A stretch of 64,000 bases of DNA, from contig JAVZJD010000001.1 in assembly GCA_038870975.1 (NCBI GenBank), positions 288,001 to 352,000 of the forward strand, written 5' to 3'. The DNA is from Candidatus Bathyarchaeia archaeon (GTDB lineage Archaea > Thermoproteota > CALKCG01 > B24). The notes under the pieces were generated by a model. The model made no database searches. It was given only the letters and a program-made list of their open reading frames with translations, and was not told the origin of the DNA. Positions 12,308 to 33,102 of the stretch are shown here, piece by piece. The position numbers and the translations under genes are program-made. Each line of letters begins with the position of its first letter. Positions within the stretch are counted from its first letter, which is position 1.

Positions 12308-12457
12308 AATCTTATAATCTATTTTAAAGAAAGTATCTACTTTGATTGATGTTCAGTCTAATAATAGACCATTGCATCGAAGATCACGATAGCGTCGAGG
12401 TAGAGATTGAACTTTCACCGCTAGTGAAGACTATTTATCTAGGTTATTACTCTCTAT

Positions 12458-12748
12458 TTGAATGATATGGTTTGCGTTAGAGTGAGGTTTTATGCTAGTT
12501 TGAGGGATGAAATTGGCGCTGAAGAAGTTGTTATGTATTTAAGCGACTCGTCGTTCTACTCTCTCCTAAGTCGTCTTAAGGCGTTGTTTGATGGGAGAGC
12601 GGATAGACTGTTTTCGGAGGACGGAAAGTTGAGGGACGGTTTAATAGTCTCGGTCAACAATAGTATTGTTCACTTGTCGAATGTTCGAGAGCTTAAGCTC
12701 TGTGAAAACGACATAGTTGACTTCATGCCTGTCCCCTCAGGTGGTTGA
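12458..12748 (+). CDS. moaD: MoaD/ThiS ubiquitin-like sulfur carrier
   Basis: VRFYASLRD beta-grasp start, C-terminal PVPSGG, overlaps moaE. Confidence 0.88.
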   Translation: MNDMVCVRVRFYASLRDEIGAEEVVMYLSDSSFYSLLSRLKALFDGRADRLFSEDGKLRDGLIVSVNNSIVHLSNVRELKLCENDIVDFMPVPSGG

Positions 12749-13157
12749 ATTGAAGGTTAAAGTAGGCCGGGAGTTGGATCCGCTTCCATCTCTTATAGAG
12801 CATTTAAAACGGTCTTCTGATGAAGTTGGAGCTATAGCCGTATTTATAGGAGTTGTACGCGGAGTGAGCAACGGCGAGAAGGTTTTGAAGCTTAGCTATG
12901 AGGCTCATGAGGTTTTAGCATCTAGAGTCTTGGAAAGTCTAGTGGAGGATGTTAAGAAGAAGTATGGATTGTTGGATGCCGTGGCGGAGCATAGGCTTGG
13001 CGACGTCCCAGTTGGAGAAGATATAATGTACGTCTTAGTCGCGTCGAAGCATAGGGATGACGCGTATAAAGCTTTGATGGAGTTGGTTGATAGAATAAAA
13101 CGCGAAGTGCCTATTTGGAAGAAAGAGCATACTGAAAAGGGCTCTAAGTGGGTGTGA
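12741..13157 (+). CDS. moaE: molybdopterin synthase catalytic subunit
   Basis: GAIAVFIGVVR, LSYEA, HRLG, SKHR and PIWKKE. Start is the GTG at 12741 or the TTG at 12750. Confidence 0.93.
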   Translation: MVELKVKVGRELDPLPSLIEHLKRSSDEVGAIAVFIGVVRGVSNGEKVLKLSYEAHEVLASRVLESLVEDVKKKYGLLDAVAEHRLGDVPVGEDIMYVLVASKHRDDAYKALMELVDRIKREVPIWKKEHTEKGSKWV

Positions 13158-13176
13158 GAATTCCCTTCGACGCGGT

Positions 13177-15294
13177 TTAAATGCTACTTCTCCATCTTCT
13201 GAGTAGAAGGGAATTGCCTACTACCGATAAGTCTGAAACTATCATGGTTAGTGCGCAGACTTCAGGTTTTAATAGGAAGCCAAGCCACTGGTAGAAGACG
13301 CCGGCAGCCATGGGGATTAACAGGATGTTATAGAGGAATGCTAGAAACAGGTTCTGCTTTATTTTGGAGAAAGTGGCTTTTGAAAGTTCAAAAGCCCTTA
13401 TCACATCTCTTAAATCGTCTTTAACTAGAATTATTCCACCGGCTTCTTTGGCTATGTCTGTTCCAGCGCCCATAGCTATCCCTACATCCGCCGCCGCTAA
13501 CATCGGAGCATCGTTAATACCATCTCCTACGGCTCCCACTATTCTACCAGTCTTCTGAAGTTTTCTGATGACTTCTTCCTTGTCTTGAGGTAGGACTTCA
13601 GCTATTGTTTTCTCAATCCCGAGTTTTCTAGCTATAGCTTCAGCCGTTTTCCAGCTGTCCCCTGTGACCATGTAGACGTCGATCCCCCAATCCTTTAGAG
13701 TCTTAACGACTTCTTTTGAATAATCTTTCAAAGTGTCAGCTACGGCTATAGCGCCTTTAACCTCACCGTCTACTGAAACAAGCATTACTGTTTTTCCTTC
13801 TCCTTCCAATTCAATTCCAAGATTGCTTTGGACTACCCTGCGATTTCCAAGTATAACGTTTTTCCCATCTACTCTTCCTTTAAGACCCCCTCCGGGCATC
13901 ACTTCAAAACCTTGAACCTCCAAAAGCCGTATTCTACGCTTCTCAGCTTCTCTGACGATTGCGACGTCTAATGGATGGGTTGTATTCTTCGCTAAACTAG
14001 CTGCCAATTGTAAAACATCTCCAAAAACGTCTGTCACTTCAGGCTCACCTTTGGTTAAGGTTCCGGTTTTATCGAAAACAATGGTATCAATTTCCCGAAC
14101 TTTCTCTAAATACTGTCCTCCCTTGATCAGAATCCCCATTTCCGCTCCTCTGCTTATCCCAATCATAACTGCGGTCGGTGTAGCGATCCCCAAAGCACAT
14201 GGACAGGCGACGACCAAAACTGAGATGAAAACTGTCAAAGCGAACGTAAGACTTTCCCTTAGAAGGAGATACCAAACGATAAAGCTCAGAATAGCTGTTA
14301 AAACCACCAGGGGGACGAACCAATTTAAAGCTTTATCGGCGATTCTCTGAATTGGTGCTTTGGACTTCTGTGCTTCACTGACGAGACTGATTATCTGGGC
14401 TAAAGCCGTCTCTTTTCCAACCTTAGTTGCTTGAAATTTGAATAGTCCTAGTTTATTTATAGTTCCACCGAAAACTTCATCCCCTTCTTTCCTATCCAAT
14501 GGCATAGATTCTCCTGTGACCATAGAGGCGTCGACTACTCCCTTCCCCTCTACGATGACTCCATCTGTTGGGATTTTCTCACCAGGTCTTACGATTACGA
14601 TGTCCCCCTTTTGGATTTGTTCAAGCGGTACTTCCATTTCTATGCCTTCTCTTAAAACTCTAGCAGTTTTAGCTTCAAGCTTCATCAGTTTTTTAATGGC
14701 TTCGCCGACTTTTCCTTGGGATGTCTTCTCCAATAGGACGCCTAATGTAATAGTCGTTAGTACTGTTGTTGAAGCATCATAGAATACGGGGCCTGAGGTG
14801 AAGAACGTAGTTACGATAGAGTAGAAATATGCGGCTGAAGTACTAAGTGATACTAGAACATTTAAGTCAGTTGTCTTCTGCTTTAAACTGAAGTAGGCTC
14901 CTCGGTAGAATGGTAGGCCGAGTATCACCTGTACTGGTGTAGATAAGCTGAAGAGTAGAAGGTTCAAGCTTGAATTGTAGAAGAAATTGATGATAGCCCA
15001 GGTGGGAACCGTTAAAACGACTCCAAGTAAAAACCTCCACCAGCCACTTTCAACTTCATCTTCAGTCTCTACTCTATCCGACGCCTCATAGCCAGCTTCT
15101 TCAATAAATTTTTTGATCTTTTCAACGTCGACTTCAGCTGGGTTGTATTCGACAACCGCCTCTTCAAGTGTGAAACTGACGTGAGCTGAAACAACGCCCC
15201 TTACTCTTAGGAGAGCCTTCTCAATGGTTTTAGCGCAACTTTCACAATGCATTCCTTTTATTCTGAGTTTGGTTTTTTCAACCATGTCTAACAC
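13177..15294 (-). CDS. copA: P1B copper-exporting ATPase
   Basis: GMHCESC metal-binding domain, TGES, CPC, DKTGT, HP, GDGINDAP, YN. Confidence 0.93.
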   Translation of the reverse strand: MLDMVEKTKLRIKGMHCESCAKTIEKALLRVRGVVSAHVSFTLEEAVVEYNPAEVDVEKIKKFIEEAGYEASDRVETEDEVESGWWRFLLGVVLTVPTWAIINFFYNSSLNLLLFSLSTPVQVILGLPFYRGAYFSLKQKTTDLNVLVSLSTSAAYFYSIVTTFFTSGPVFYDASTTVLTTITLGVLLEKTSQGKVGEAIKKLMKLEAKTARVLREGIEMEVPLEQIQKGDIVIVRPGEKIPTDGVIVEGKGVVDASMVTGESMPLDRKEGDEVFGGTINKLGLFKFQATKVGKETALAQIISLVSEAQKSKAPIQRIADKALNWFVPLVVLTAILSFIVWYLLLRESLTFALTVFISVLVVACPCALGIATPTAVMIGISRGAEMGILIKGGQYLEKVREIDTIVFDKTGTLTKGEPEVTDVFGDVLQLAASLAKNTTHPLDVAIVREAEKRRIRLLEVQGFEVMPGGGLKGRVDGKNVILGNRRVVQSNLGIELEGEGKTVMLVSVDGEVKGAIAVADTLKDYSKEVVKTLKDWGIDVYMVTGDSWKTAEAIARKLGIEKTIAEVLPQDKEEVIRKLQKTGRIVGAVGDGINDAPMLAAADVGIAMGAGTDIAKEAGGIILVKDDLRDVIRAFELSKATFSKIKQNLFLAFLYNILLIPMAAGVFYQWLGFLLKPEVCALTMIVSDLSVVGNSLLLRRWRSSI

Positions 15295-15322
15295 AAACCG
15301 GAGAATGACGGTATCAAACGAT

Positions 15323-15335
15323 ATAACGCTGTTAT
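15323..15335. promoter_or_regulatory. ATAAC-N3-GTTAT site overlapping the copA TATA box
   Basis: ATAACGCTGTTAT, perfect match; TTTAAATA overlaps on the minus strand. Confidence 0.65.
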
Positions 15336-15398
15336 TTAAAGCTTTTCAACCTAAAAATAGCCCAGTCAAAGCGAAAAACGGTGGAGTTTGGATGATTC

Positions 15399-16322
15399 TT
15401 ACTTTGAAAGCTTTAGCATTCTCTCTATTGCAGATCTAGATTTTTCAGCTATGCGGTTAGGCACTTTAACTATGGGTTTCTTCTTCTCTAAAGCCTGGTA
15501 GACTTTTTCAAGCGTGTGAAGCTTCATATTTTCACACACTGCGTTTTCAAGCGCTGGGATATACTCTCTACCTGGGATTTCTCTTCTCAAGCGGTCTACT
15601 AGACCGATTTCAGTTGCGATTATGAACCTTTTTGAAGACGTTTCAAGGCATCTTTTACACATCTGCTCTGTGCTTCCGATGAAATCTGCTATATTTTGAA
15701 CCTCTGGGTCGCACTCTGGATGTACTAGTACTTCAGCATCCGGATACTTCTTCTTAAGAGTGAGGATGTCTTCTGCCTTAAACATTTTATGTACGACACA
15801 GTAGCCGTTTTCAGGTATTGGAATTATCTCCTTGTTTGGGCAGTGTTTAGCCGTATACCAGGCTAGATTACGGTCTGGTCCGAATAATACCCTCGTAGAG
15901 TTTAGTCTATCTGCTATTTTCGACGCGTTTGAAGACGTGCATATGACGTCTGCCTCGGCTTTTGCCTCGGCTAGTGTATTGACGTACAGCATGACTTCAG
16001 CGTCTGGATACTTCTTTTTAGCTTCAACAACTATGTTTGCGGGTAGTTGTGCAGCCATAGGGCATTTAGCTTCAACATCTGGTATTACGACGATCTTATC
16101 TGGGTTTAAAATGGATGCGGTTTCAGCCATAAAATCGACACCGCAGAAGACAATATACTTGAAGTCTTCAACTTTAGTAGCCGTGAGACACAGCTGTAGA
16201 GAGTCTCCGACGAAGTCTGCAATCTCCTGAATCTCTGGACGCTGATAGTTGTGGGCTAGAATTAGAGCTTTCTCCCTCTCTTTTAGCTGAATTATCTTCT
16301 TTTGAATCTGTGTAAGTGCCAT
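15399..16322 (-). CDS. nadA: quinolinate synthase
   Basis: LAHNYQ, GDSL, FCGVDFMAE, CPMA, CVVH, HPEC, CENMK. Confidence 0.97.
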   Translation of the reverse strand: MALTQIQKKIIQLKEREKALILAHNYQRPEIQEIADFVGDSLQLCLTATKVEDFKYIVFCGVDFMAETASILNPDKIVVIPDVEAKCPMAAQLPANIVVEAKKKYPDAEVMLYVNTLAEAKAEADVICTSSNASKIADRLNSTRVLFGPDRNLAWYTAKHCPNKEIIPIPENGYCVVHKMFKAEDILTLKKKYPDAEVLVHPECDPEVQNIADFIGSTEQMCKRCLETSSKRFIIATEIGLVDRLRREIPGREYIPALENAVCENMKLHTLEKVYQALEKKKPIVKVPNRIAEKSRSAIERMLKLSK

Positions 16323-16339
16323 TGTCTACCTAACCTTCC

Positions 16340-16352
16340 ATAACACCGTTAT
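16340..16352. promoter_or_regulatory. ATAAC-N3-GTTAT site near the nadA transcription start
   Basis: ATAACACCGTTAT, perfect match, about 23 nt downstream of TTTATAA on the minus strand. Confidence 0.65.
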
Positions 16353-16450
16353 TAGTCTTCATTTCTAGAAAAAGCTTATAAATGTTTCTCCAAGGACGGC
16401 TGATAATCTGTTGAACAGGTGTGACAGGTTTACGGTTATAATCCGTTCAC

Positions 16451-17560
16451 CTAATCTTCAGAATACGGTATATAGAACTGGGGTTTAGGAGGTTTAGGTC
16501 TGAAAGCTTCGCTTTTAATCTTGAAAACTTCAATCTGACGTTTTAATGTCTCCTCTTCTACTACGCTATTTACCAGTTTATGCAGCTCCTCGGGGTCTAG
16601 TTTAACTCTAGCGTTCAGTAGGAGCATTCCATAGTCCGTATAGTTGACGTCTTCAGATCCAGTTATAGTTGCACCTTGCTCTATTGATGTGATGTTGGCT
16701 TTGAATACTCCGCTTTTCGTCCTGAGATAAGCTTTTACGTGCGCAATAAACCCATTGAGGTCTGTAATGCGTCTCCCGATCCGAGATAAAACATCTCTGA
16801 CGAAATCTCTAGGGTTGAAACCGTGTTTTGTCTTTAATTCGTAAAGCCCGTCGAACCATGCGAGTTCAAGCTCAGCCTGTGTATATTTGATCATGTCTAT
16901 ATCTGGATATGGTAGCCTTTTCGACACACCCTTGAGTACAATTTCAACTATTCTGTCGACTCCGACGTTGAATTTAGCAGATGTCAATACGTATTCTGCC
17001 TCAGGCCTCAGCTTTTTCAAGAGGTTGACTGTTTCCGCTACTGTTGGGCTGTCAACCAGATCTATCTTGTTGATACATAAGACTTCCCCCTCTTTTATCT
17101 GCGATGCTATGAGGAAGGATATGGGGTCTTCAGCATTTAAGAGGTTGACTTCTTGGTGAAGCGTGAGGATTCGTGAAGCATCTACAATGACGATTAGTGG
17201 AGCAAGCTCAAGCCTGTCTGAGTAGAACTTTTTTACAGGTGCGTATAGTGTTGGCATTAGTCCAGCGCAGCTTCCAACAGGCTCTGCGAGGATTATATCT
17301 GGCTTCAGTTTTTCTAAAATTTTCTGAGTTTGGCTGATGAAGTCTTGAAAATTGCAGCAGAAGCATCCTTTAAATACTTCTGCTACTTCGAAGCCGTAGT
17401 CTCTAACCGTAGCGCTATCAACTAAGACTTCTCCTTGATCGTTTGTTACAACTGCGACTTTTTTCCCATACTCGTTTACCAGCTGTTCGCCTAGTTTGAG
17501 TAGGAGGGTCGTTTTTCCGCTTCCTAAGAAGCCTCCTACAAGTACGAGTTTAGGCTTCAT
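16451..17560 (-). CDS. COG0523/CobW-like G3E metallochaperone GTPase
   Basis: GGFLGSGKTT, TNDQG, GCFCC, EPVGSC, NKID. Confidence 0.85.
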   Translation of the reverse strand: MKPKLVLVGGFLGSGKTTLLLKLGEQLVNEYGKKVAVVTNDQGEVLVDSATVRDYGFEVAEVFKGCFCCNFQDFISQTQKILEKLKPDIILAEPVGSCAGLMPTLYAPVKKFYSDRLELAPLIVIVDASRILTLHQEVNLLNAEDPISFLIASQIKEGEVLCINKIDLVDSPTVAETVNLLKKLRPEAEYVLTSAKFNVGVDRIVEIVLKGVSKRLPYPDIDMIKYTQAELELAWFDGLYELKTKHGFNPRDFVRDVLSRIGRRITDLNGFIAHVKAYLRTKSGVFKANITSIEQGATITGSEDVNYTDYGMLLLNARVKLDPEELHKLVNSVVEEETLKRQIEVFKIKSEAFRPKPPKPQFYIPYSED

Positions 17561-17671
17561 AATTTTAATCGCTACTGTTAACCTTGATTATTATTTTTAA
17601 ACTTTATGTTAATTTTTTCTTTACATAGGGCAACCATTATAAAAGGCTTTGTAGAAATTTAGACAGGAGTC

Positions 17672-18568
17672 ATGTCTGATGAATCGGTCTATGGGAATAG
17701 TGGGGGCTTAGAGACTTATTCGAAAGCCCAAAGTCTAATTCGGAGGCTTTTAGACTGGTTTAAAGATAAAAACAGTGTATTGGTTGCTTTTTCAGGAGGC
17801 GTAGATAGTACTCTTGTAGCTTATGCTGCCTATAGGGCTTTAGGTAGTAGAGTTTTAACCGTTACAGTAGCCTCACCTATGTTTCCCCGTGAGGAGGTTG
17901 AGGAGGCTGTTAAGTTAGCCCGCTTAATAGGGGTTAGGCATAGGGTTGTTGAAATCGATATGTTGAACGATTCTAAGATTGTTGAAAATCCTCCGGATAG
18001 ATGCTACTACTGTAAAAGGCTTATGTTGAAAGCTTTAACCGAAGTCGCTGAAGCGGAAGGTTTAGAGCTGCTGGTTGACGGCTCGAACGCCGAGGATTAT
18101 CGAGACTTCAGACCTGGTCTTAAGGCTTTAAGAGAATTCAAAGTAAGGAGTCCACTGGCGGAATTGGACTTCAGCAAAAACGACGTGAGGACTGTTTCGA
18201 GGTTTTTAGGGCTTCCCACGGCTGATAAACCTTCAATGGCTTGTTTAGCTTCGAGGATTCCATATGGTGTGGAATTAACCTATGATAGGCTTAAGAGGGT
18301 TTCAGAGGCTGAATCCTATATAAGGCAGCTAACAGGTGTTAAGCAGGTTCGAGTTAGAGACCATGGTGGAATAGCTAGGATTGAAGTCGGTAGAGATGAG
18401 AGGAGGGGCTTTTTCAAAGAAGAGCTTATGGACATAATATGGGCTAAGCTTAGAAGCCTAGGATATGTATACGTTACTCTAGACCTATACGGATATAGGT
18501 CTGGAAGCTTAAACGAGCCTTTAGATTCTCCACAACCCCCTCCATCTCCTGGAGAGAGGAGCGCTTAA
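17672..18568 (+). CDS. larE: LarE-family ATP-dependent sulfur transferase
   Basis: PP-loop AFSGGVDS, RCYYCK, RPG, ACLASRIPYG, RVRDHG, GYRSGSLN. Confidence 0.92.
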   Translation: MSDESVYGNSGGLETYSKAQSLIRRLLDWFKDKNSVLVAFSGGVDSTLVAYAAYRALGSRVLTVTVASPMFPREEVEEAVKLARLIGVRHRVVEIDMLNDSKIVENPPDRCYYCKRLMLKALTEVAEAEGLELLVDGSNAEDYRDFRPGLKALREFKVRSPLAELDFSKNDVRTVSRFLGLPTADKPSMACLASRIPYGVELTYDRLKRVSEAESYIRQLTGVKQVRVRDHGGIARIEVGRDERRGFFKEELMDIIWAKLRSLGYVYVTLDLYGYRSGSLNEPLDSPQPPPSPGERSA

Positions 18569-18599
18569 AGCCGCTCCGGCTCAACAGCCGTAATACGTT

Positions 18600-18803: not shown

Positions 18804-18966
18804 GGTTGAAACGTTTCCTCCTATGATTTAAAGCTTTACTATGTTAAACTCTAGACTTAAAACCTCATGAAGCAGTGGGTTTTAATGGCTGTAGCTCCAT
18901 TGGATTCAGGCTGACGGGGGCCTGATCTTTAAATTATTTTTCTAAATTTTTAACACTTATTTTTTC

Positions 18967-19230: not shown

Positions 19231-19698
19231 ATGTCTCAAACCACGGCTTCCACTAAAAAGTCTATAATAGCGTTCAGAGTTGCACCTTATGTGAAAGACC
19301 TTGTTACACAGGTTGCTTTAAGTGAGGGTTTAGCGCCTTCCGAGTGGTTGAGAAACCTACTCATAGGAGAGTTTAAAAGGCGTAATCTACTCCCTAAGAC
19401 TGTTACAACGCCAAAATCTAGTCTGGCTTTGGAGAAGTTTAAAGAGCATGGTAGGGTTAGTGTTGCACGTAGACGTGACAAGTTTGAGATATTCGCTGAC
19501 ATTTTACAAGCTGCTTTAGACGGAGCGAGGACTACTGAGATAATATACCGTGTGAATTTGAATTCTAAACGTTTCAGAGAATACTCTGAGTATTTGGTTA
19601 AGGCTGGGTTTCTAGAGGTTTTAGAGAAGCCTGGAGGGTTTAAAATCTACAAGACTACTGGTAGGGGTAGGATATTCCTAGAGGCTTTATCAAGGTAG
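19231..19698 (+). CDS. ribbon-helix-helix plus winged-HTH DNA-binding protein
   Basis: IIAFRV...SEWLRNLL RHH pattern followed by RRRDKFEIFADIL...YKTTGRG winged helix. Confidence 0.7.
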   Translation: MSQTTASTKKSIIAFRVAPYVKDLVTQVALSEGLAPSEWLRNLLIGEFKRRNLLPKTVTTPKSSLALEKFKEHGRVSVARRRDKFEIFADILQAALDGARTTEIIYRVNLNSKRFREYSEYLVKAGFLEVLEKPGGFKIYKTTGRGRIFLEALSR

Positions 19699-25006: not shown

Positions 25007-25027
25007 AGCGTATAATTCATCTGCCGA

Positions 25028-25056: not shown

Positions 25057-25080
25057 ACGATAAAGTTTAATAATATGTAT

Positions 25081-25093
25081 ATAACAGCGTTTT
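25081..25093. promoter_or_regulatory. ATAAC-N3-GTTAT-like site (1 mismatch)
   Basis: ATAACAGCGTTTT between the TATA-like TTTAATAA and the start. Confidence 0.55.
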
Positions 25094-25096
25094 ACA

Positions 25097-26275
25097 GTGT
25101 CCTATTTGACAGATTGCGAGCTTGAAAAACCCATAAGAACCTATGAAGAAATAAATGAGAAGATCAGAAAAGGAGAAGTTGTAGTTTTGAGAGCAGATGA
25201 ATTTAAACGTCTAGCTGAAAATAGAGGTTTTGAAGCGGCAGCTAAGGAGGTCGATGTTATAACGACTGGCACATTTGGAGCCATGTGCTCCTCAGGAGCT
25301 GTAATCAACCTAGGACATTCAGACCCACCTATTAAGATAGATAAAGCCTGGATAAACGACGTCCCCGTATGCCATCCGGGGGCGGCAGTAGACCTATACA
25401 TAGGAGCTACTCAAATGTCTGAAACCAAGCCCTTTGAATACGGCGGCGGCCATGTCATTGAAGACTTAATACGTGGAAATGAAGTCGAATTGAGGGCTAC
25501 TGCCTATGGAACAGACTGCTACCCTAGAACTAGACTTGAAACCACGATAACGAAGTACGATTTAAACCAATTCTACATGTTGAACTTTAGAAATGCTTAT
25601 CAAAAATACGTCTGTGCAACCAATAGTAGGGATACTACAATGTATACTTACATGGGTAAATTGTTGCCACATTACGGAAATGCCACCTTTTCAGGGTCTG
25701 GTGAATTAAACCCTCTGATGAACGATCCAGATTACGAAACGATAGGCATTGGAACGAGGATATTCCTTGGAGGTGCGAAAGGCTACGTAATAGGTGAAGG
25801 TACTCAACATGACCCGAAGAATCAAATGGGCACATTAATGGTTAGAGGAAATTGTATGGAAATGGACGCTAAGTACGTCAGAGGAGCGGCTATAACCCGC
25901 TATGGAACATCGATATACGTTGGACTCGGCATACCAATACCAATATTAAGCTTGAAAATCGCTAAAAACATTGCGTCTACAAAAGATGAGAACATAAAGG
26001 TCAAAGTTGTAGACTACGGCATCCCTAAGAGGGAAAGACCCATATTGAGAGAAGTCTCCTACAAAGAGCTTAAAACTGGGAGAATAGAAATCCTAGGTAA
26101 AACTGTCAAAGTAAGCCCTCTATCAAGCATCAAAATCGCACTAGATATAGCTGAAACCCTGAAGAAGTGGATTGAAGAAGGAACATTCTACCTCTCTAAA
26201 CCCGTTGAAAACCTACCTAAAGACTCTATATTTAGACCAATGAGGGAGGGAGTCGTCGCAAAGAGAATACTGTAG
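25097..26275 (+). CDS. L-aspartate semialdehyde sulfurtransferase (MA1821/DUF39-type homocysteine synthesis), no CBS tail
   Basis: RTYEEINEKI, VDVITTGTFGAMCSSG, YGGGHVIEDL, TDCYPR, RNAYQ, YTYMG. Confidence 0.9.
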   Translation: MSYLTDCELEKPIRTYEEINEKIRKGEVVVLRADEFKRLAENRGFEAAAKEVDVITTGTFGAMCSSGAVINLGHSDPPIKIDKAWINDVPVCHPGAAVDLYIGATQMSETKPFEYGGGHVIEDLIRGNEVELRATAYGTDCYPRTRLETTITKYDLNQFYMLNFRNAYQKYVCATNSRDTTMYTYMGKLLPHYGNATFSGSGELNPLMNDPDYETIGIGTRIFLGGAKGYVIGEGTQHDPKNQMGTLMVRGNCMEMDAKYVRGAAITRYGTSIYVGLGIPIPILSLKIAKNIASTKDENIKVKVVDYGIPKRERPILREVSYKELKTGRIEILGKTVKVSPLSSIKIALDIAETLKKWIEEGTFYLSKPVENLPKDSIFRPMREGVVAKRIL

Positions 26276-26279
26276 GAGG

Positions 26280-26678
26280 TTGTTAAAAATGGTTAAAATA
26301 CTCTTGAGGTTCCATAGAGGGCTCATGAGGGAACCCATAACTTCAACAGTCATCCTAGAGAAAGGCGTTAAAATAAACATTCTAAAAGCCTTCGTACATG
26401 AGAGGGGCGGAGAGATGCTTATAGAAGTCTCAGATGAATACGCAGATGAAATAATCAGGGCTTTTGAAAGCAAAGGCGTTGAAGTCATACTTAGAAGGAC
26501 AATATCCGTAGACTCGGATAAATGTATACACTGTGGCGCCTGCCTCTCCCTCTGTCCAGCAGATGCCATAAAATTATCTCAAGAGTACACGGTATCTTTC
26601 GATGAAAGTAAATGTGTAGCATGCGGCATCTGCGTAGACGCATGTCCGATGAGAGCCATCTCTCTTATAACCTTCTGA
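26280..26678 (+). CDS. NIL domain plus 2x[4Fe-4S] ferredoxin subunit (MA1822-type)
   Basis: INILKA, CIHCGACLSLCP, CVACGICVDACP; directly follows the DUF39 gene. Confidence 0.9.
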   Translation: MLKMVKILLRFHRGLMREPITSTVILEKGVKINILKAFVHERGGEMLIEVSDEYADEIIRAFESKGVEVILRRTISVDSDKCIHCGACLSLCPADAIKLSQEYTVSFDESKCVACGICVDACPMRAISLITF

Positions 26679-26682
26679 ATCT

Positions 26683-27024
26683 TTAAACCCGTAGGCTTTC
26701 TAACTCATCTATATGCTTTTGGATGACTTTACAGATCTGACAAATGTCCAATACATTCGGCTCAGGGCTTTTAGACTTAGCGATATCTTCCGCGATCTTC
26801 TCCACAATATTCCTAACGCTGTCAACTCTCATCAATTTTTCGGAAAGCTTCCATCCACGCTTCGACCGCAAATAGTGACTTATGGCTGCCTGCGTAGTAC
26901 CTAAAGCTTTAGCGGCTGAAGTTTGAGTAAACCCATACTTCTCTACGAGCCTCTTAGCTATAAGAAGTCTTACAGCTGGTAGAATAAACTTGACAGACGA
27001 CTCGCACGGAGGTTTTAAACCCAT
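26683..27024 (-). CDS. Cys-bearing HTH transcriptional regulator (COG2522-like)
   Basis: PPCE...LPAVR, HTH TQTSAAKALGTTQAAISHYL, C-terminal ICQIC. Confidence 0.85.
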   Translation of the reverse strand: MGLKPPCESSVKFILPAVRLLIAKRLVEKYGFTQTSAAKALGTTQAAISHYLRSKRGWKLSEKLMRVDSVRNIVEKIAEDIAKSKSPEPNVLDICQICKVIQKHIDELESLRV

Positions 27025-27050
27025 AGATTTCTCCTAGAGTAGTAAGGATT

Positions 27051-27063
27051 ATTACTCTGTTAT
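27051..27063. promoter_or_regulatory. ATAAC-N3-GTTAT-like site (1 mismatch) overlapping the regulator's own TATA box
   Basis: ATTACTCTGTTAT; the minus strand reads TTTATAACAGAGTAAT. Confidence 0.6.
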
Positions 27064-27110
27064 AAATTTTGCCATAGATCCATCTAAAAATTTATACGAA
27101 TCTAAACTTC

Positions 27111-28436
27111 TCAAACTCCTCCCTTAACTTTAAAATATTCTTCAAACTGCTCTACGTACTTATAGCCAGTATCTGGAAAAACCAAAACGTAAACTCCACG
27201 CTCCTTCATCATTCTAGTGAATGCAGTGAAAACAGCCCCAGCACTTAAACCTATTAAAAGCCCCTCCCTTCTAGCGACTGTCAATACGCCCTCTAAAGCT
27301 TCTCTCCTACTAACGTCTACAACCTGGTCGAACACCGCCCAGTGAATCCACTTCATACCTGTTTCAACCCTACGTACGCCGGGTATTGTCTCATTAGGAG
27401 CAGATTGAACACCTATGATCTTCACAGAATCTCCATACTTGCTTTTGAAGTAGATAGATATAGCACTCATATGTCCTGAAGTCCCCAAACACCCTATAAT
27501 ATAGTCTGGAACTAGTCCTAGACTTCCAAGCTGTTCATCGATCTCCCTAGCCGTATATTTGAGATGGACTTTAAGATTCGCGTCGTTTTCAAACTGATTC
27601 AAATGCGTCGCTCCATCCTCTTTAGACTTCGCATCAACTTCTTCTAAGGCTTCTACAGTTAAATCTACAGGTACTCTTACAACATCAGCCCCTAAAACCC
27701 TGAGTAAAACATCGCTAGTCTTCTGAACAGTCCTCGGAAGGAATAGCTTCACCTTTCTCCCTAGGATACTTGCTATAGCCGCTATAGCAATTCCGGTGTT
27801 GGTGGAAGTAGCCTCATACAGAACGTCTCCCAAAACACCATCTTCAAGAGCCCTCATAACTAAAGCCCAGCCAGTCCTATCTTTAACGCTATTACTAAAC
27901 GGATTTAACCCTTCAAGCTTAGCCCAGACAGTTCTTTCACCATTTGAGAAAGACCTAAGCTTAACCAGAGGCGTCGGCCAATCTCCATAGAAAAGCTCTA
28001 AAGTGCTATTATAAACTCTAAGCCTCCTATCATCTTTTCTACGAACATTTAACAAATTCAAGTTTACATCTACTTTTGGGACTCCCCCCTTGATTTGAAC
28101 GTCAAAACTTCCATATGGAAGCCTCGGACCTTTAATACCAGCTCTAATAACATCCTCCAACGTAACAGGTCCAAATCGCGTATTTAGAGTCTTAACAACC
28201 ACTCTAGAAGAGTCGATTTGAAGCACGGGGATTTTCTCAGCTGAGAAAATCTTTAAAGCCTCAAATACTTCCCATCCCTTCAAAACAACCATAGTTGACT
28301 TTTCAACTACAATAGGTTCTCTAACGCATTTTTCACTGAGGATTCGACTGTACGTAGGGATTACAATCTTTAAATCTACGTTTACTGGCTGTTTCACTTC
28401 GTTTATCCCCACGTTTTTGATTCTACCCTTCGACAT
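27111..28436 (-). CDS. PLP cysteine synthase (O-phosphoserine sulfhydrylase type) with a degenerate N-terminal SerK/ParB-like domain
   Basis: WPTPLVKL, NPFSNSVKDR, EATSTNTG, NQFEN, GTSGH, FPDTGYKY. Probable ATG start at 28436. Confidence 0.85.
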   Translation of the reverse strand: MSKGRIKNVGINEVKQPVNVDLKIVIPTYSRILSEKCVREPIVVEKSTMVVLKGWEVFEALKIFSAEKIPVLQIDSSRVVVKTLNTRFGPVTLEDVIRAGIKGPRLPYGSFDVQIKGGVPKVDVNLNLLNVRRKDDRRLRVYNSTLELFYGDWPTPLVKLRSFSNGERTVWAKLEGLNPFSNSVKDRTGWALVMRALEDGVLGDVLYEATSTNTGIAIAAIASILGRKVKLFLPRTVQKTSDVLLRVLGADVVRVPVDLTVEALEEVDAKSKEDGATHLNQFENDANLKVHLKYTAREIDEQLGSLGLVPDYIIGCLGTSGHMSAISIYFKSKYGDSVKIIGVQSAPNETIPGVRRVETGMKWIHWAVFDQVVDVSRREALEGVLTVARREGLLIGLSAGAVFTAFTRMMKERGVYVLVFPDTGYKYVEQFEEYFKVKGGV

Positions 28437-28447
28437 AACGGCGTTAT
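28435..28447. promoter_or_regulatory. ATAAC-N3-GTTAT site overlapping the cysteine synthase start
   Basis: ATAACGGCGTTAT, perfect match, downstream of TTTTTAAG on the minus strand. Confidence 0.65.
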
Positions 28448-28637
28448 ATTTAACCCTCAAACTTAAAAACTTTTAGAAGACCAGTAACTGTCGATTAACT
28501 CTAAATATGAGGCGCTACGTTTAAAATCGTAAACTCTCTACATAGAAATCAAAAGTTTTTCTTCACAACACTCGTAAATTACTCTAGAAGAGCCTCTATC
28601 TTAAGGAGAAGTGTAAATCTAAGCTGGAGGGGAGGAA

Positions 28638-29618
28638 TTGGAGGCTTTTAAGAAAGTCAAGTGTAAGAGATGCGGCGTAGTTAAAGAAGGCGTTTATTTA
28701 CCGAGTTACAATTTAAAGCTTTGCCTAGACTGCTTCCAACTCTTCTTCGAGAATAAAACTCAAAAGACCATTGAAAAGTTTAAAATGTTTTCAAAAAACG
28801 ATAAAATCGCAGTCGCTATCTCAGGAGGGAAGGATAGCACAGCTTTAGCTAAATCCTTAAAAAACCTAGGGTACAACATCCATCTCGTTCACATCAACTG
28901 TCAAATAGAAGAAGAAAACTACTCAAAGAACTGCCAAGAAACAGTTGAAAAATTCGCTGAAGAGGAAAACCTCCCCCTTACGATTCTAGATTTCAAGAAA
29001 GAGGTTGAAGTAGACGTAAAACTAGCGGCAAAAATAGCAAGTAAAGAAATATGCGCCCTCTGTGGAATGGTGAAAAGGTATCTTCTAAATAGAGAAGCCG
29101 CAGAGTTTGACGTCCTCGTCACCGGACATACTTTAGACGATGAAGCAGCAAACCTCCTATCCTCCCTAATATTCTGGAGAGAATTCTTAGAGAGACAGTG
29201 GCCAGTATTGAGAGAAGAAGGACCTCTTAAAAAGAGGGCTAAGCCCTTCTGTCTAACTTTCGAACGTGAAACAAAACTTTACTGCGATATTTTAAAGCTT
29301 CCATATGTAAAAAACCCATGCCCTCTTAGAGGTGGAACCTACGTCTTCTTCAAAAAGATAATTCAAGAAGTAGAAAGAGAAATGCCTTCCTCGATAATTG
29401 GCTTCTACAAGGGCTTTCTAAAGAGGAAAGAGAAGCTTGGACTTACACCTAGGAAGGAAAACCTAATGCCCTGTAGAAACTGCGGATATTTAACCGTAGC
29501 TGAAGTCTGTAGCTTCTGTAGATTGAAAGAAAAAGTTAAAGACTATCTAGCTTCAAAAGCAGTATGGTCTAACCACCGACTATCGCAGGCATTATCGTCA
29601 CTTCATCCCCCTCGTTAA
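28638..29618 (+). CDS. ttuA: TtuA/Ncs6-family tRNA 2-thiolase
   Basis: N- and C-terminal Zn fingers, SGGKDS PP-loop, CALC, TGHTLDD, PCP. Confidence 0.88.
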   Translation: MEAFKKVKCKRCGVVKEGVYLPSYNLKLCLDCFQLFFENKTQKTIEKFKMFSKNDKIAVAISGGKDSTALAKSLKNLGYNIHLVHINCQIEEENYSKNCQETVEKFAEEENLPLTILDFKKEVEVDVKLAAKIASKEICALCGMVKRYLLNREAAEFDVLVTGHTLDDEAANLLSSLIFWREFLERQWPVLREEGPLKKRAKPFCLTFERETKLYCDILKLPYVKNPCPLRGGTYVFFKKIIQEVEREMPSSIIGFYKGFLKRKEKLGLTPRKENLMPCRNCGYLTVAEVCSFCRLKEKVKDYLASKAVWSNHRLSQALSSLHPPR

Positions 29619-29805
29619 GAAGATGGTCAGATTTCACAGCTCTGCCGTTCACGAGAATAATCTCCTGCGTTAAATCAAAGCCTTTAATACGTTCAGAAAG
29701 TTTACCCATGAGGTCTTTTACGGTAGATTTATCTTCGATTTCCACTTCTAACCTGCTGCCGAGTTTTTGAGCTATAAACCCGTACGTATTAACTTTGACC
29801 TTCAA
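29569..29805 (-). CDS. MoaD/ThiS ubiquitin-like protein (TtuB/SAMP-like)
   Basis: ILVNGR, LNEGDEVTIMPAIVGG. TTG start at 29805; convergent overlap with ttuA. Confidence 0.85.
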   Translation of the reverse strand: MKVKVNTYGFIAQKLGSRLEVEIEDKSTVKDLMGKLSERIKGFDLTQEIILVNGRAVKSDHLLNEGDEVTIMPAIVGG

Positions 29806-29887
29806 CCTTAAACTACCTACGCTTCGGTCTATTATAAGCATTTTCCAACTGAAGGTGAAGATTTATACTTAAATAGTAGAAGTTTAA

Positions 29888-30637
29888 TTGATGACGCTAT
29901 CAGCCTATGAGCTTGAACGCTATGATAGACAAATCCGTATACCAGACTTCGGATTGGAAGGTCAGATTAGACTTAGAAACTCTAAAGTTGCCGTCGTTGG
30001 GATTGGAGGATTGGGCTGTTTAGCATCAATATACTTAGCAGCTGCAGGAGTTGGCAAACTAATACTCATAGATAAAGAAAGATTTGAACTAAACAATTTA
30101 AACAGACAGATACTGGGATACCCGTCAGACTTAGGGAAGCTAAAGGTAGAGGTTGCAAAAATTAAACTTGAAGAGTTTAACCCCAATGTTGAAGTTGAAG
30201 CTCTTCCAGTTGAATTGTCTGAGAAAAACATAGCAGACACTATAGGCCATGTTGATGTTGTCGTAGATTGTCTAGACAACTGGAGAACCAGATTTCTCAT
30301 AAACGACTACTGTGTATCGGAAAACATCTGCTTTGTCCACGCAGCTGTTTCAGAACTATATGGACAGATTACGACGATAATGCCTAGAAAAGGTCCATGT
30401 CTTAGATGTGTCCTCTACAGAATTCCAACAGTGGAAACCGAAGTCATCCCAATACTAGGAGCAGTTCCAGCGACATTAGCTTCCCTTGAAGTTTTAGAGA
30501 CGATAAAACTACTGACGGGAATAGGAGAGCCTCTAGTTGGAAGAATGCTTTTCATAGATTTAAGGAGGATGAGCTTCGACACGATTCAACTATCTAGAAG
30601 AAACGACTGCCCCACATGTAGTGGAACGACAGCTTAA
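29888..30637 (+). CDS. ThiF/MoeB/UbaA E1-like adenylyltransferase
   Basis: RYDRQ, GIGGLG, NLNRQ, DCLDN, CLRC and CPTC Zn motifs. Confidence 0.92.
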   Translation: MMTLSAYELERYDRQIRIPDFGLEGQIRLRNSKVAVVGIGGLGCLASIYLAAAGVGKLILIDKERFELNNLNRQILGYPSDLGKLKVEVAKIKLEEFNPNVEVEALPVELSEKNIADTIGHVDVVVDCLDNWRTRFLINDYCVSENICFVHAAVSELYGQITTIMPRKGPCLRCVLYRIPTVETEVIPILGAVPATLASLEVLETIKLLTGIGEPLVGRMLFIDLRRMSFDTIQLSRRNDCPTCSGTTA

Positions 30638-30668
30638 AATAAAACCTCTCTCCTCTTAAAAGTAGAAG

Positions 30669-30953
30669 ATGAAGGTTAAAATCAAATACTTCGCATATTT
30701 AAGGGAAATCACGGGAAAGCGTGAGGATTTAGTCGAATTAGAAGAAGACACATCTGTCGGAAAACTCTTAGAAGCACTTTCAAACAAATACGGAGAAAAG
30801 TTTAGAGAATATATTTATGGACTCGGCGAATTTGAAGGAGTATCTCTAAACTTTCTACTAAACGGAAGAAACATATCACTCGATAAAATGTTTGAAACAA
30901 AACTTCAAGATGGAGATGTCTTATCTATCCTTCCACCCGTAGCAGGAGGATAG
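30669..30953 (+). CDS. MoaD/ThiS ubiquitin-like protein (SAMP1-like)
   Basis: MKVKIKYFAYLRE...LQDGDVLSILPPVAGG. Confidence 0.9.
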   Translation: MKVKIKYFAYLREITGKREDLVELEEDTSVGKLLEALSNKYGEKFREYIYGLGEFEGVSLNFLLNGRNISLDKMFETKLQDGDVLSILPPVAGG

Positions 30954-31058
30954 ACGTACTTCAACATCTACGTAAACATCTCAGACCTTCAGCATACCAA
31001 CAGCCTTCGCAAACTTATTATAAAATTATTATTGTAGTTATATGTAGTTACTCGGCTG

Positions 31059-32282
31059 ATGTTCATGTTAAACGTTGAACACATACGTAGAGACTTCCCA
31101 ATGCTCTCACTAAGCAGGGAAGACGGCAAGCCCATAATCTACTTAGACAACGCCGCCACAACCTTTAAACCACGTCAGGTTATAAATGCCATAGTCCGCT
31201 ACTATGAACGTTATACAGCCAACGTACATAGAGGCCTATACAAGCTATCCCAAGAAGCGACCACACTATATGAAAACTCTAGAGAGACCATCGCAAAATT
31301 CATAAACGCCGATCCGAGTGAAATAGTCTTCACGAAAAACGCTACTGAAGGCATTAATATAGTTGCCTATGGCTTAAATTGGACACCTGAAGATGAAGTA
31401 ATCACAACTGTTATGGAACATCACTCTAACCTTATCCCATGGCAGATGATACGAGACAGATTTAAAGTCAAACTGAAATTCCTAGATATAACTAATGATG
31501 GACATCTCGACGTTGAAAAACTCCCAAATTTAATATCTAAACGGACTAAACTTGTAACTTTAAACCACGTATCGAATGTATTAGGAACGATAAATCCGGT
31601 TGAAGAAGTGGTCAAAATAGCTCATGAACACGAAATACTGGTCCTCGTTGATGCCGCACAATCTGTTCCTCATATTCCCATAGATGTGAAAAGACTTGAA
31701 TGCGATTTTCTAGTTTTCAGCGGTCATAAAATGCTTGGACCTACGGGAATAGGTATTCTATACGTAAACAGCGACACTTCAAACATCCTTCAACCTGCTT
31801 TTGGAGGTGGAGAGATGATACGTAAAGTCGAACTGGAAAAAGCAGAATGGAACGACGTACCATGGAGATTTGAACCTGGAACTCCAAACGTCGCTGGAGC
31901 AGTTGGACTCGCAGCTGCAGTCGAATACCTCGCAAAAATTGGGATGGATAATGTGCGAAAACATGAAATCCAGCTAAACCATCTAGTCCTTAGAAAGCTT
32001 AACGATTTAGAGGCAGTAACAGTCTACGGGCCTAAGAAAGCTGAAGATAGAGGTGGACTCGTAGCATTCAACATTAAAAACATGGATAGCCATGATGTAG
32101 CCCTTCTACTGGACGAACTAGAGAATATAGCCGTTAGATCAGGCTTACACTGCGCGGCTCCCCTACATAAGAGGCTTGGACTGAAAAGCACGGTTAGAGC
32201 GTCTTTCTACATATATAATACAGTGGAAGAGATTGATATATTCTGCAACACTATGGAGAAGATATCCAAGCTAAAACCATGA
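31059..32282 (+). CDS. sufS: group II cysteine desulfurase
   Basis: YLDNAAT, NVHRG, EHHSN, DAAQS, SGHKM, RSGLHCA. Confidence 0.95.
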   Translation: MFMLNVEHIRRDFPMLSLSREDGKPIIYLDNAATTFKPRQVINAIVRYYERYTANVHRGLYKLSQEATTLYENSRETIAKFINADPSEIVFTKNATEGINIVAYGLNWTPEDEVITTVMEHHSNLIPWQMIRDRFKVKLKFLDITNDGHLDVEKLPNLISKRTKLVTLNHVSNVLGTINPVEEVVKIAHEHEILVLVDAAQSVPHIPIDVKRLECDFLVFSGHKMLGPTGIGILYVNSDTSNILQPAFGGGEMIRKVELEKAEWNDVPWRFEPGTPNVAGAVGLAAAVEYLAKIGMDNVRKHEIQLNHLVLRKLNDLEAVTVYGPKKAEDRGGLVAFNIKNMDSHDVALLLDELENIAVRSGLHCAAPLHKRLGLKSTVRASFYIYNTVEEIDIFCNTMEKISKLKP

Positions 32283-33074
32283 TTACACATGCCACTTACC
32301 TAAAATATCTCTACTCACAATCTCAGCAACACGTCTACCCGATAGAAGCATGCCGCCGAATATAGGGCCCATTCTAGGTAGTCTGTAAAGCGCTGCAACA
32401 GCCATCCCTGCAACGTAAAGCCCATCGCAAACTTTTCCAGTCTTCTCTACTACAAGCTTCTCACCCTCAGCAGCCCACATGGATGCTTCCCCAGGTAGAG
32501 ACTTATTCAAACCCGGAACCTTCTTAAAAACTATTGATAATACTTCAGCCTCATGCCCAGTGCAGTCTACAACAGCTTTAGCTTTAAATGAAATCGGGTC
32601 TACGTGTAGATTTGCTAGAACTATGGAGCTCCATTGTACAACAACTCCAACTATCTTAGGAGTATTGTCTTCAATCCTAAAAATAACATCGTCAACTGAT
32701 ACTCCTAAAAGTATTTCTGCACCAGCATCTACGGCCGCCGCGGCAAGTTTAGCCGCCATCTCCGCTGGGTCGACCAAATACAGCTCTTCATTAAACTGTT
32801 TAAGTCTACATTTGACCTCTCTAAGTATATCGTCAGCTGGCTTTTCTACTACTGCAGCTGGGAGCTGCATCCCCCCTCCACCTATGCCCCCTCCAAAGGA
32901 GAGCCTCCTCTCAACTAAAAGTGTGTTTAATCTATTTTTAGCCAGGTAGGTTGCAGCCGTAAGACCAGCGGGTCCTGCACCTACAACGATGACATCTACA
33001 TCAGCCAACTTGTAGAGTTTATCTGTAGCAGCTTTAACTATGGCTTTGGTTATAACAGATTCATCAATACCCAT
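32283..33074 (-). CDS. thi4: sulfide-dependent thiazole synthase
   Basis: GAGPAG, GGGIGGGG, LHVDP (His at the suicide-Cys position), DCTGH, PRMGPIFGGMLLSG. Confidence 0.93.
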   Translation of the reverse strand: MGIDESVITKAIVKAATDKLYKLADVDVIVVGAGPAGLTAATYLAKNRLNTLLVERRLSFGGGIGGGGMQLPAAVVEKPADDILREVKCRLKQFNEELYLVDPAEMAAKLAAAAVDAGAEILLGVSVDDVIFRIEDNTPKIVGVVVQWSSIVLANLHVDPISFKAKAVVDCTGHEAEVLSIVFKKVPGLNKSLPGEASMWAAEGEKLVVEKTGKVCDGLYVAGMAVAALYRLPRMGPIFGGMLLSGRRVAEIVSRDILGKWHV

Positions 33075-33075
33075 G

Positions 33076-33102
33076 CAGACCCGGTTACTATTACCGGGTT
33101 AA
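33076..33102. promoter_or_regulatory. tandem degenerate ATAAC-N3-GTTAT-like sites between the thi4 TATA box and start
   Basis: ATTACCGGGTTAA at 33090-33102 and CAGACCCGGTTAC at 33076-33088. Confidence 0.5.

Follow-up and report, generated by a model that had tools for sequence, protein, structure and literature searches.

A palindromic operator at cysteine and sulfur genes of Bathyarchaeia and a candidate autoregulated helix-turn-helix repressor

Several small regulators are known to adjust the metabolism of sulfur, cysteine and iron-sulfur (Fe-S) clusters. In bacteria, the Rrf2 proteins IscR, NsrR and RsrR are small, dimeric, autoregulated repressors with three cysteines and an acidic or histidine ligand, and they control the desulfurase, the scaffold and Fe-S genes; in NsrR and RsrR, the ligands of the cluster include residue 8, an Asp or Glu. 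CymR with CysK in Bacillus and Staphylococcus, and CysB in Enterobacteria, are master regulators of cysteine metabolism. In Archaea, SurR of the Thermococcales is a winged-helix sulfur-response regulator with a CxxC redox switch, which recognizes the motif GTT-N3-AAC and controls hydrogenase and sulfur-reduction genes, and ThiR, which combines a helix-turn-helix (HTH) domain with a ThiN domain, is reportedly the archaeal thiamine regulator. For Archaea, we are not aware of any transcription factor that governs the biosynthesis of cysteine, the mobilisation of sulfur or the supply of Fe-S clusters. Here we analyse a stretch of 64,000 nucleotides (hereafter the window, C1:288001-352000) from the genome of a hot-spring archaeon, Candidatus Bathyarchaeia archaeon (GCA_038870975.1; two contigs, 1.85 Mb, 41% G+C, 12% intergenic, 92.9% complete). 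The window contains a short palindrome, ATAAC-N3-GTTAT, at the promoters of genes for cysteine and sulfur metabolism, and it encodes a 113-amino-acid HTH protein that is very probably the autoregulated repressor of this regulon.

The system resembles each of these regulators in part. As with SurR, the candidate is archaeal and sulfur-related, contains a CxxC and is associated with a short palindrome with a 3-nt spacer, whereas its half-sites stand in the opposite order (AAC-N3-GTT) and it appears to belong to another family, the two having been compared by way of Pfam. Its role would match that of CymR/CysK and CysB, namely to coordinate the genes for cysteine synthase, sulfate reduction and sulfur amino acids, although other protein families and another domain of life are involved. 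The proposed logic is that of IscR, NsrR and RsrR, with a near-invariant Cys7 and Glu8; however, the likeness is functional only, because the protein is of the XRE-type HTH_3 kind, has no sequence relation to Rrf2 (no Rrf2 match in Pfam or NCBIfam at E<=0.001-0.01) and holds a cluster that is putative, and the regulon reaches cysteine and homocysteine synthesis and tRNA-Cys.

The perfect form of the operator occurs three times in the window (15323, 16340 and 28435), where 0.04 copies are expected by chance, and none of 100 dinucleotide-preserving shuffles contained three or more. Copies with at most one mismatch number nine against an expectation of 2.89, a count of at least nine again being found in none of 100 shuffles, and these include the sites at 25081 and 27051. 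The five sites stand at the promoters of a copA-like gene, of nadA, of a gene for a cysteine-synthase-like pyridoxal-phosphate (PLP) enzyme of the PALP fold, of the hcyBio operon and of the HTH gene itself (Table 1). A first-pass annotation had picked out the same five, three of them as perfect and two as one-mismatch copies, and Pfam upheld the gene identities that it had assigned (a P-type ATPase with a heavy-metal-associated domain, NadA, PALP, HcyBio and also Thi4, ThiS-like and MoaE). Its claim that the sites lie at or after the TATA box, as those of a repressor would, holds for all five: they abut or overlap TATA-like elements, and their ends range from a gap of -2, at which the site reaches 2 nt into the start codon, to a gap of 28 nt. 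At the HTH gene, 26 nt separate the core from the ATG, and the TATA-like AAAATTTATAAC overlaps the core; at copA, the left half of the operator is overlapped by the TATA-like GCTTTAAATAAC, and the ATG follows 28 nt further on; at hcyBio, the core stops 3 nt short of the GTG start and is preceded by the TATA-like TTTAATAATA; and at nadA, the ATG follows the core after 17 nt, with a TTTATAAG element 22 nt upstream of the operator. The PALP gene was listed as 27111-28460, with a TTG start at 28460. Because the GTTATG overlap between operator and start codon recurs in loci L005, L006 and L011, and the AAAAGTTTTTAAG element in L005 and L006, we took the ATG at 28436 as the real start, which is the most likely reading of the sequence (L-numbers denote loci around homologues of the HTH protein, and G-numbers denote sampled genomes of the phylum).

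The operator is conserved among relatives. A scan of one genome per species yielded 80 loci (759,427 bp in total), mostly from Bathyarchaeia, the others being labelled Nitrososphaeria, Brockarchaeota, Hadarchaeota, Promethearchaeota, Sulfolobales and Desulfurococcaceae (the last two in L067 and L048). The perfect motif occurs 77 times in this DNA, whereas every control pattern occurs zero to four times: the reversed motif three times, the half-swapped motif twice, the direct repeats zero times and once, and versions with spacers N1, N2, N4 and N5 once, once, four times and not at all. A first-order Markov model (Markov-1) of the same DNA gives a mean of 0.4 copies and a maximum of two. Sixty-three of the 77 perfect sites are located within -75 to +120 nt of a called gene start, and orthologous promoters carry them recurrently, as the footprinting proposed by the first-pass annotation had envisaged. 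Orthologues of the PALP gene have operators in L005, L006, L007, L011, G017 and G025, and those of NadA in L005, L008 and L011; the HcyBio orthologues of L002, L005 and L006 share the one-mismatch form ATAAC-N3-GTTTT, the site of L003 being weaker (two mismatches, 12.0 bits), and P-type ATPase genes carry perfect sites in L079 and G025 (L114). We considered whether the matches might be due to chance, or might represent a general promoter element of AT-rich intergenic DNA, given that the left half-site resembles a TATA box and that copies with one or two mismatches are common and not enriched in intergenic DNA. However, the control counts, a spacing that is strictly three, the conservation of the central R-N-Y and the fact that only about seven promoters per genome carry a site leave this explanation with a negligible probability.

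When the 63 promoter sites were aligned in gene orientation, the core extended to a palindrome of 15-17 bp, T-ATAAC-R-N-Y-GTTAT-A, in which a purine (A or G) occupies the first central position in 54 sites and a pyrimidine (C or T) the third in 61; 44 of the sites have the flanking T and 39 the flanking A. Among 122 site-gene pairs, 69 have the end of the site between 10 nt inside the gene and 20 nt before the start codon. Archaeal repressors usually bind between the TATA box and the transcription start, and a protein bound at these sites would cover just this region, which fits the geometry of a repressor. Might the protein instead be an activator, or a dual regulator rather than a pure repressor? 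Some sites are 45-120 nt from the nearest start, for instance in divergent pairs and at NifU in L021. These far sites mostly concern the second gene of a divergent pair, however, and in the 69 pairs, whose sites lie beside TATA-like elements, a bound protein would hinder TBP/TFB or the polymerase; we regard either role as improbable.

The link between the operator and the HTH protein is provided by the protein's own gene. In 61 of the 80 loci, the 100 nt preceding the HTH gene contain a copy with no more than one mismatch (18 perfect, 43 with one mismatch), against 14 of 774 control windows, and the own-promoter site predicted in the window is thus retained widely; a position-weight matrix trained on these same loci likewise gives 61 of 80 against 1 of 384 control windows. 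The own-gene site is often imperfect in a lineage-specific manner. In the window and its closest relatives it takes the form ATAAC-N3-GTAAT (also found upstream of the orthologue in L001-L006, L008, L009 and L011), and in a large second group, whose other targets have perfect sites, it is ATAAG-N3-GTTAT. Such an imperfect site fits a weaker autoregulatory site. It could be argued that the palindrome is real and is bound by another factor, the HTH gene being just one more target, in that the pairing of protein and palindrome is deduced from sequence and that in some loci regulator genes of other kinds are found close to sites (HTH_3+CBS in L052 and L065, DtxR-type in L010), while the window has a gene of the Sso10a family (19231-19698). 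However, the own-gene site is kept across very different neighbourhoods, none of the other regulator genes recurs across loci, no HTH+ThiN protein is encoded in this genome, and perfect sites are about 30 times denser around the HTH gene (77 in 759 kb) than in the genome as a whole (6 in 1.85 Mb). We consider such a factor very improbable.

Table 1. Operators, look-alike sites and associated genes. Positions are those of the window unless preceded by C1 or C2; scores and ranks refer to the position-weight matrix, the ranks to hits of at least 16 bits in the genome.
Feature	Position	Strand	Score (bits)	Rank	Remarks
HTH repressor candidate P0001	26683..27024	-			113 amino acids, XRE/Cro-type; Pfam HTH_3; only copy of the family in the genome
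Operator of the HTH gene	27049..27065	.	16.2	7	core ATTACTCTGTTAT, one mismatch
Cysteine-synthase-like PLP enzyme (PALP fold)	27111..28436	-			directly upstream of the HTH gene, same strand; Pfam PALP 3e-52
Operator of the PALP gene	28433..28449	.	20.5	3	perfect core ATAACGGCGTTAT; overlaps the ATG (GTTATG); upstream element AAAAGTTTTTAAG
Operator of the hcyBio operon	25079..25095	.	18.2	5	core ATAACAGCGTTTT, one mismatch
HcyBio (homocysteine sulfur-incorporation enzyme)	25097-26275	+			Pfam HcyBio 3.5e-139
NIL-domain 2x[4Fe-4S] ferredoxin	26280-26678	+			follows HcyBio; Pfam NIL + Fer4
Operator of nadA	16338..16354	.	16.1	8	perfect core ATAACACCGTTAT
Quinolinate synthase NadA	15399..16322	-			Pfam NadA 1e-113
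Operator of copA	15321..15337	.	20.9	2	perfect core ATAACGCTGTTAT
CopA-like P-type ATPase	13177..15294	-			N-terminal heavy-metal-associated domain; Pfam E1-E2_ATPase, Hydrolase, HMA
thi4 look-alike	33090..33102	.	4.3		two mismatches; unsupported as operator; score of the best site in the thi4 promoter
moaD-moaE look-alike	12435..12447	.	2.1		two mismatches; unsupported as operator; score of the best site in the promoter
Operator of the DUF438-hemerythrin gene	C2:49695		21.9	1	
Orphan intergenic site	C1:45518		20.4	4	
Intragenic site			17.1	6	

In the whole genome, the perfect motif occurs six times: the three copies of the window, one before a DUF438-hemerythrin gene on contig 2 and two that are intragenic, four of the six being on promoters. 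Copies with one mismatch number 73 and those with two mismatches 1084, and these looser matches are uninformative. The matrix, which is symmetric and was built from the promoter sites of the related loci, finds eight hits of at least 16 bits in the 1.85 Mb, and seven of them are at promoters or intergenic. The total is only modestly raised, since genomes simulated six times with a Markov-1 model contain 0-5 such hits (mean 2.3), and the striking part is the promoter or intergenic location of seven of the eight.

The site with the genome's best score is perfect, lies 6 nt before the start codon of the DUF438-hemerythrin gene and is preceded by the TATA-like TTTAATTATAT. The product (C2:49695-50496) combines DUF438 with a hemerythrin (HHE) domain and has a C-terminal CC...H.H motif, and from these features it may act in the repair or sensing of iron centres. 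The orphan operator (C1:45518-45534, ATATAAGGCTGTTATAT) lies inside a 370-nt intergenic gap, in which the only frame directly after it would encode a hydrophobic peptide of about 33 amino acids; a small membrane protein or an RNA could stand behind it. The tRNA-Cys of this genome has no operator.

The first-pass annotation had extended the regulon to thi4 and moaD-moaE, at which the two-mismatch copies do exist. They score 4.3 and 2.1 bits, compared with 16.1-20.9 bits for the five real sites, and we rejected these genes as members in this genome, so that of the scope proposed earlier cysteine, homocysteine/methionine, NAD and copper export are retained, thiamine genes carrying sites in some relatives. 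Three one-mismatch sites (11533, 42431 and 56528) are all intragenic, and were not counted; only that at 56528 exceeds 10.5 bits (12.1). A further one-mismatch copy (62611-62623), below 10.5 bits and also not counted, is located 45 nt upstream of a gene for a 208-amino-acid protein (61940-62566, - strand) with a cysteine-rich end, C-x6-C-x2-C-x5-C, which suggests a possible 4Fe-4S motif.

What does the operator control in relatives? Family searches covered 67 target genes beside perfect sites and 27 beside matrix sites with a mismatch. PALP enzymes are found beside perfect sites in ten loci and ThiI+NFACT-R_2 enzymes in six, followed by Aminotran_5 enzymes (class V, cysteine desulfurase type) in four, Cys_Met_Meta_PP enzymes (O-acetylhomoserine sulfhydrylase type) in three, and PAPS_reduct, NadA, FdhD, DsrE_2 and 2-Hacid_dh (D-2-hydroxyacid, SerA-like) in two each. 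Single cases are Thi4, NifU_N, ThiS, a P-type ATPase, a hexapeptide transferase in a Promethearchaeota locus and a DtxR-type regulator in L010; DUF2284 is represented by two genes of one locus. Unrelated genes, mostly the other half of a divergent pair, encode a histone deacetylase, a glycosyltransferase, a tRNA-Thr editing domain and YdjM. Beside the sites with a mismatch we found HcyBio (four: L002, L003, L005 and L006), LarE-like PP-loop proteins (four), CobW GTPases (four) and PALP (two), and one each of ThiF, Thi4, NadA, ThiI, O-phosphoseryl-tRNA synthetase (SepRS, L041) and an FtsX permease. Genes of the thiamine type form a minority of the targets: Thi4 has a perfect site in L068 and a one-mismatch site in L011, and ThiF/ThiS genes have sites in L005, L026 and G025. 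In L029 (10053-11912), the two DUF2284 genes, predicted to encode metal-binding proteins, stand in tandem, each with a perfect operator 58-79 nt upstream.

The tRNA genes extend this picture. ARAGORN identified 21 tRNA genes in the 80 loci, of which nine are tRNA-Cys (eight with anticodon GCA, one with ACA). A perfect operator precedes the mature 5' end of tRNA-Cys by 4-10 nt in L013 (1801-1893), L019 (3525-3615) and L028 (4183-4279), and in L010, L014, L017, L028 and L039 a tRNA-Cys gene stands downstream of the HTH gene, in the same orientation and within about 180 nt. Therefore, from these sites and from SepRS in L041, cysteine, including its tRNA-dependent synthesis, appears to be at the centre of the regulon; judged by its predicted members (cysteine synthase, desulfurase, tRNA-Cys and SepRS), the centre would be cysteine more than the consumers of Fe-S clusters as such.

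This composition also bears on the proposal of a cysteine site that responds directly to copper or to stress by thiol-reactive metals, the cysteine and Fe-S genes being induced as a response to metal damage. CopY-type repressors, in which Cu(I) displaces a resident metal, offer a precedent; CopA-like genes have perfect operators in three genomes (that of the window, L079 and G025), the genome's best site is at a hemerythrin-domain gene, and the DtxR-type regulator gene of L010 has a site. However, cysteine synthase, desulfurase, ThiI-like enzymes, HcyBio and tRNA-Cys, rather than metal genes, are the targets encountered most often, and most loci have no metal transporter at a site; we judge direct metal sensing to be unlikely.

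The HTH protein matches Pfam HTH_3 (PF01381) with 27.0 bits (cut-off 23) over residues 24-56, and Pfam gives HTH families only. A profile search found a single member of its family in this genome. In a large protein collection, 33 homologues of similar length besides itself were found at E<=0.001, the close ones being named Bathyarchaeia; in their alignment C95 and C98 are invariant, the motif KPPCE and the helix LGTTQAAISHY are conserved, and the C-terminus is not. At E<=0.001 the family comprises 1935 cluster representatives, of which 918 remain at E<=1e-10; the best 150 are nearly all 100-140 amino acids long. Among 134 aligned representatives, P16 is invariant and C7, E8, R19, L26, Q34, A38, Y51, R56, C95 and C98 are conserved in at least 90%, whereas H104 and H50 are not conserved. 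All four residues to which the first-pass annotation drew attention (C7, C95, C98 and H104) are present in the protein; the conserved set is C7, E8, C95 and C98. The family profile matches 182 of 201 sampled genomes of the phylum, and members also occur in metagenome-assembled genomes labelled Brockarchaeota, Hadarchaeota and Promethearchaeota. An AlphaFold2 model of the monomer is all-helical (mean predicted local distance difference test, pLDDT, 74; predicted template modelling score, pTM, 0.69). A Foldseek search of the PDB gave no match at E<=0.001, a sequence-profile search of the PDB gave only weak matches to HipB and Cro (E 0.03-0.7), and the ESM Atlas returned only archaeal clusters with the unnamed label 'transcriptional regulator'. 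The best VIA-align match, to unrelated helical proteins (Z 6.5), was dismissed, being within the noise for helical models.

The closest relative of known kind is ThiR. In some genomes the family profile has a second match, at positions 3-112 of frames of 320-338 amino acids (E ~1e-26 to 1e-30), and three fetched proteins of 320-324 amino acids consist of HTH and ThiN domains, which we take to be the architecture of ThiR. Their DNA-binding domain is homologous to the stand-alone protein, which lacks ThiN, over nearly its whole length, as the first-pass annotation had recognized, and it shares PPCE, the CxxC and the recognition-helix core TQAA.S.Y, the helix reading LGVTQAAVSGY instead of LGTTQAAISHY. 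ThiR would likewise be an archaeal repressor of cofactor- or sulfur-related biosynthesis. In contrast, the regulon described here is centred on cysteine and sulfur, and thi4 in the window is without a credible site. Five HTH+ThiN loci contain no perfect ATAAC-N3-GTTAT; two of the five have one-mismatch copies, at L085:400 (24 nt upstream of the start of that gene) and L086:422. One search among longer proteins found no fused forms, a miss of the method, since the whole-genome profile search finds them. With that profile, no fused HTH+ThiN protein, and hence no canonical ThiR encoded elsewhere that might bind the operator, was found in the 92.9%-complete assembly, in which the only ThiN domain is that of a ThiD-ThiN enzyme.

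How might such a regulon work? The explanation that we consider the best as a whole, and probably correct, is an autoregulated HTH repressor of a cysteine and sulfur regulon with a Cys-Glu sensor. The operator, its conservation and placement and the genes that carry it were observed directly, as was the link to the protein through the conserved sites at its own gene. The 113-amino-acid protein would bind T-ATAAC-R-N-Y-GTTAT-A as a dimer, and, as the operator coincides with the TATA box or follows it closely and spans the place where transcription is expected to start, the protein would keep these promoters, its own among them, from being used. In this genome the regulon would comprise the PALP gene, the HTH gene, hcyBio with the ferredoxin gene, nadA, copA, the DUF438-hemerythrin gene on the other contig and one orphan site; in relatives, it would reach the synthesis of cysteine and its precursors, cysteine desulfurase and scaffold, homocysteine synthesis, sulfate reduction, thiolation of tRNA and cofactors, and tRNA-Cys. 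The signal may be read by Cys7-Glu8...Cys95-x2-Cys98, which could hold an Fe-S cluster or a metal-thiolate centre; when the supply of cysteine, sulfide or Fe-S clusters is low, or copper is high, the centre would be lost and the DNA released. We favour such a centre because no other part of the short form is a candidate for sensing, because three cysteines and an acidic residue near position 8 recall NsrR and RsrR, and because the members outside sulfur metabolism (NadA, copper export, hemerythrin, NifU and the DtxR-type regulator) fit Fe-S homeostasis. This sensing step is put forward tentatively, as a possibility.

A different reading keeps the regulon and the repressor as described, and assigns the Cys3-Glu site a structural role, the signal being a small co-repressor (cysteine or a precursor, for example) bound at the dimer, or a partner protein such as the neighbouring PALP enzyme. 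The CymR-CysK pair of Bacillus is a precedent for such a partnership of regulator and enzyme, and in the window, as in L005, L006, L007 and L011, the HTH gene has the PALP gene immediately upstream. Moreover, the same Cys and Glu residues are kept in the HTH+ThiN proteins, which already own a ligand domain; this weakens the view of a dedicated sensor, and the site may therefore be structural, binding for example zinc. The HTH+ThiN proteins and the longer stand-alone forms also have a second Cys/His group of the zinc-ribbon kind. However, the 113-amino-acid short form is without a pocket domain for a co-repressor, its non-conserved C-terminus makes a conserved docking tail unlikely, and in most loci the neighbour is not a PALP gene. 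We regard this reading as somewhat unlikely, yet as a serious competitor.

Returning to an autoregulated repressor with a Cys-Glu sensor, several further observations weigh against it. The connection of the protein with the motif rests on their co-location and on the sites at the protein's own gene, 19 of the 80 loci have an HTH gene without an upstream site, many loci come from close relatives, so that the counts are not independent events, and the matrix was scored on the same loci that trained it. The blocks of the AlphaFold2 model that contain the CxxC reach a middling confidence (pLDDT 63). At the genome scale, 9 of the 73 one-mismatch copies are intergenic in a genome with 12% intergenic DNA, so that this class has no intergenic enrichment. 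The excess of the perfect motif over the reversed control is modest, both in this genome (6 versus 3) and in 17 genomes of its order (95 versus 23), and in many AT-rich genomes of the phylum the control outnumbers the motif. Because AT-rich genomes have many chance matches, phylum-wide counts fail to separate genomes with the protein from those without it; the sole genome of the same order that lacks the protein (G121, 80% complete) has no motif, a single case and an anecdote. Four relatives were also scanned genome-wide (G003, G017, G025 and G038), and 18 of their 40 distinct perfect sites are intragenic. In G025, of the same order, promoter sites precede PALP, a DsrE_2/cysteine-desulfurase pair, ThiF, a gene for a 151-amino-acid protein of unknown kind and a P-type ATPase, and G017 has one perfect site before PALP, whereas no sulfur genes stand at the perfect sites of the more distant G003 and G038. 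Therefore, the regulon is well supported in Bathyarchaeia and is not established phylum-wide.

Other genes of the window touch on the regulon or adjoin it. The PALP enzyme scores 165 bits against CysM/CysK models, under their cut-offs, and its residues 1-150 form an N-terminal extension of about 150 amino acids upstream of the PALP fold. The extension (153 amino acids) has no Pfam match even at E<=10, and a relation to ParB-like serine kinases is a conjecture prompted by the abstract of PMC5120207. PALP proteins of like length (439-460 amino acids, with the PALP domain from residue ~150-170) occur in L005, L006, L007, L011, G017 and G025. A divergent pair encoding a CobW GTPase and a LarE-like sulfur transferase (16451-18568) has lost the site in this genome (best -6.1 bits); the pair carries operators in L003, L005 and L006, in L002 at the LarE-like gene and, more weakly, in L004 at CobW. 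A sulfur-carrier cluster (28638-32282; TtuA-like, ThiF, ThiS-like and cysteine desulfurase) adjoins the regulon and is without an operator, the best site in the iscS promoter scoring 4.9 bits; the cysteine desulfurase gene of the relative L002 has a perfect site. The Sso10a-family gene (+ strand) encodes a winged-helix protein with an N-terminal extension of about 80 amino acids. HepT-like RNases and MNT nucleotidyltransferases are usually encoded by two genes that form a toxin-antitoxin pair, and in the window one open reading frame of 272 amino acids (22697-23515, - strand) fuses a HepT-like RNase with a Polbeta/MNT nucleotidyltransferase domain.

A literature search found no description of this regulator or operator, nor an archaeal regulator of cysteine synthesis, sulfur mobilisation or Fe-S supply, an earlier mention in the ThiR paper or in RegPrecise being possible, and a term search of PMC8351635 found none of the terms transcriptional regulator, regulon, repressor, IscR and SufR. 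The logic of the regulon is ordinary; what appears to be new is that a minimal stand-alone relative of the DNA-binding module of ThiR stands over a cysteine-centred sulfur regulon. A bolder statement, which we regard as doubtful, is that the protein is the first known archaeal master regulator of cysteine and sulfur trafficking, a minimal repressor of 113 amino acids, without a ligand domain of its own, whose Cys-Glu...Cys-x2-Cys site would hold an Fe-S cluster, and which would be a counterpart of IscR or NsrR from an unrelated fold and would couple Fe-S and sulfur status to the regulon, the HTH+ThiN proteins representing the same module with a vitamin-sensing domain added.

An operator of such simple form and sharp definition allows the regulon to be recognized from sequence in lineages that have not been cultured, Bathyarchaeia among them. 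The operator flags genes without annotation as sulfur-related, among them the extension of the PLP enzyme, DUF2284, the DUF438-hemerythrin protein and the ThiI-NFACT-R enzymes, and the presence of tRNA-Cys and SepRS among the predicted targets agrees with a tRNA-dependent synthesis of cysteine. The family is large and widespread, in the numbers given above, and this protein is a candidate for how anaerobic archaea may sense the sufficiency of sulfur or Fe-S clusters.

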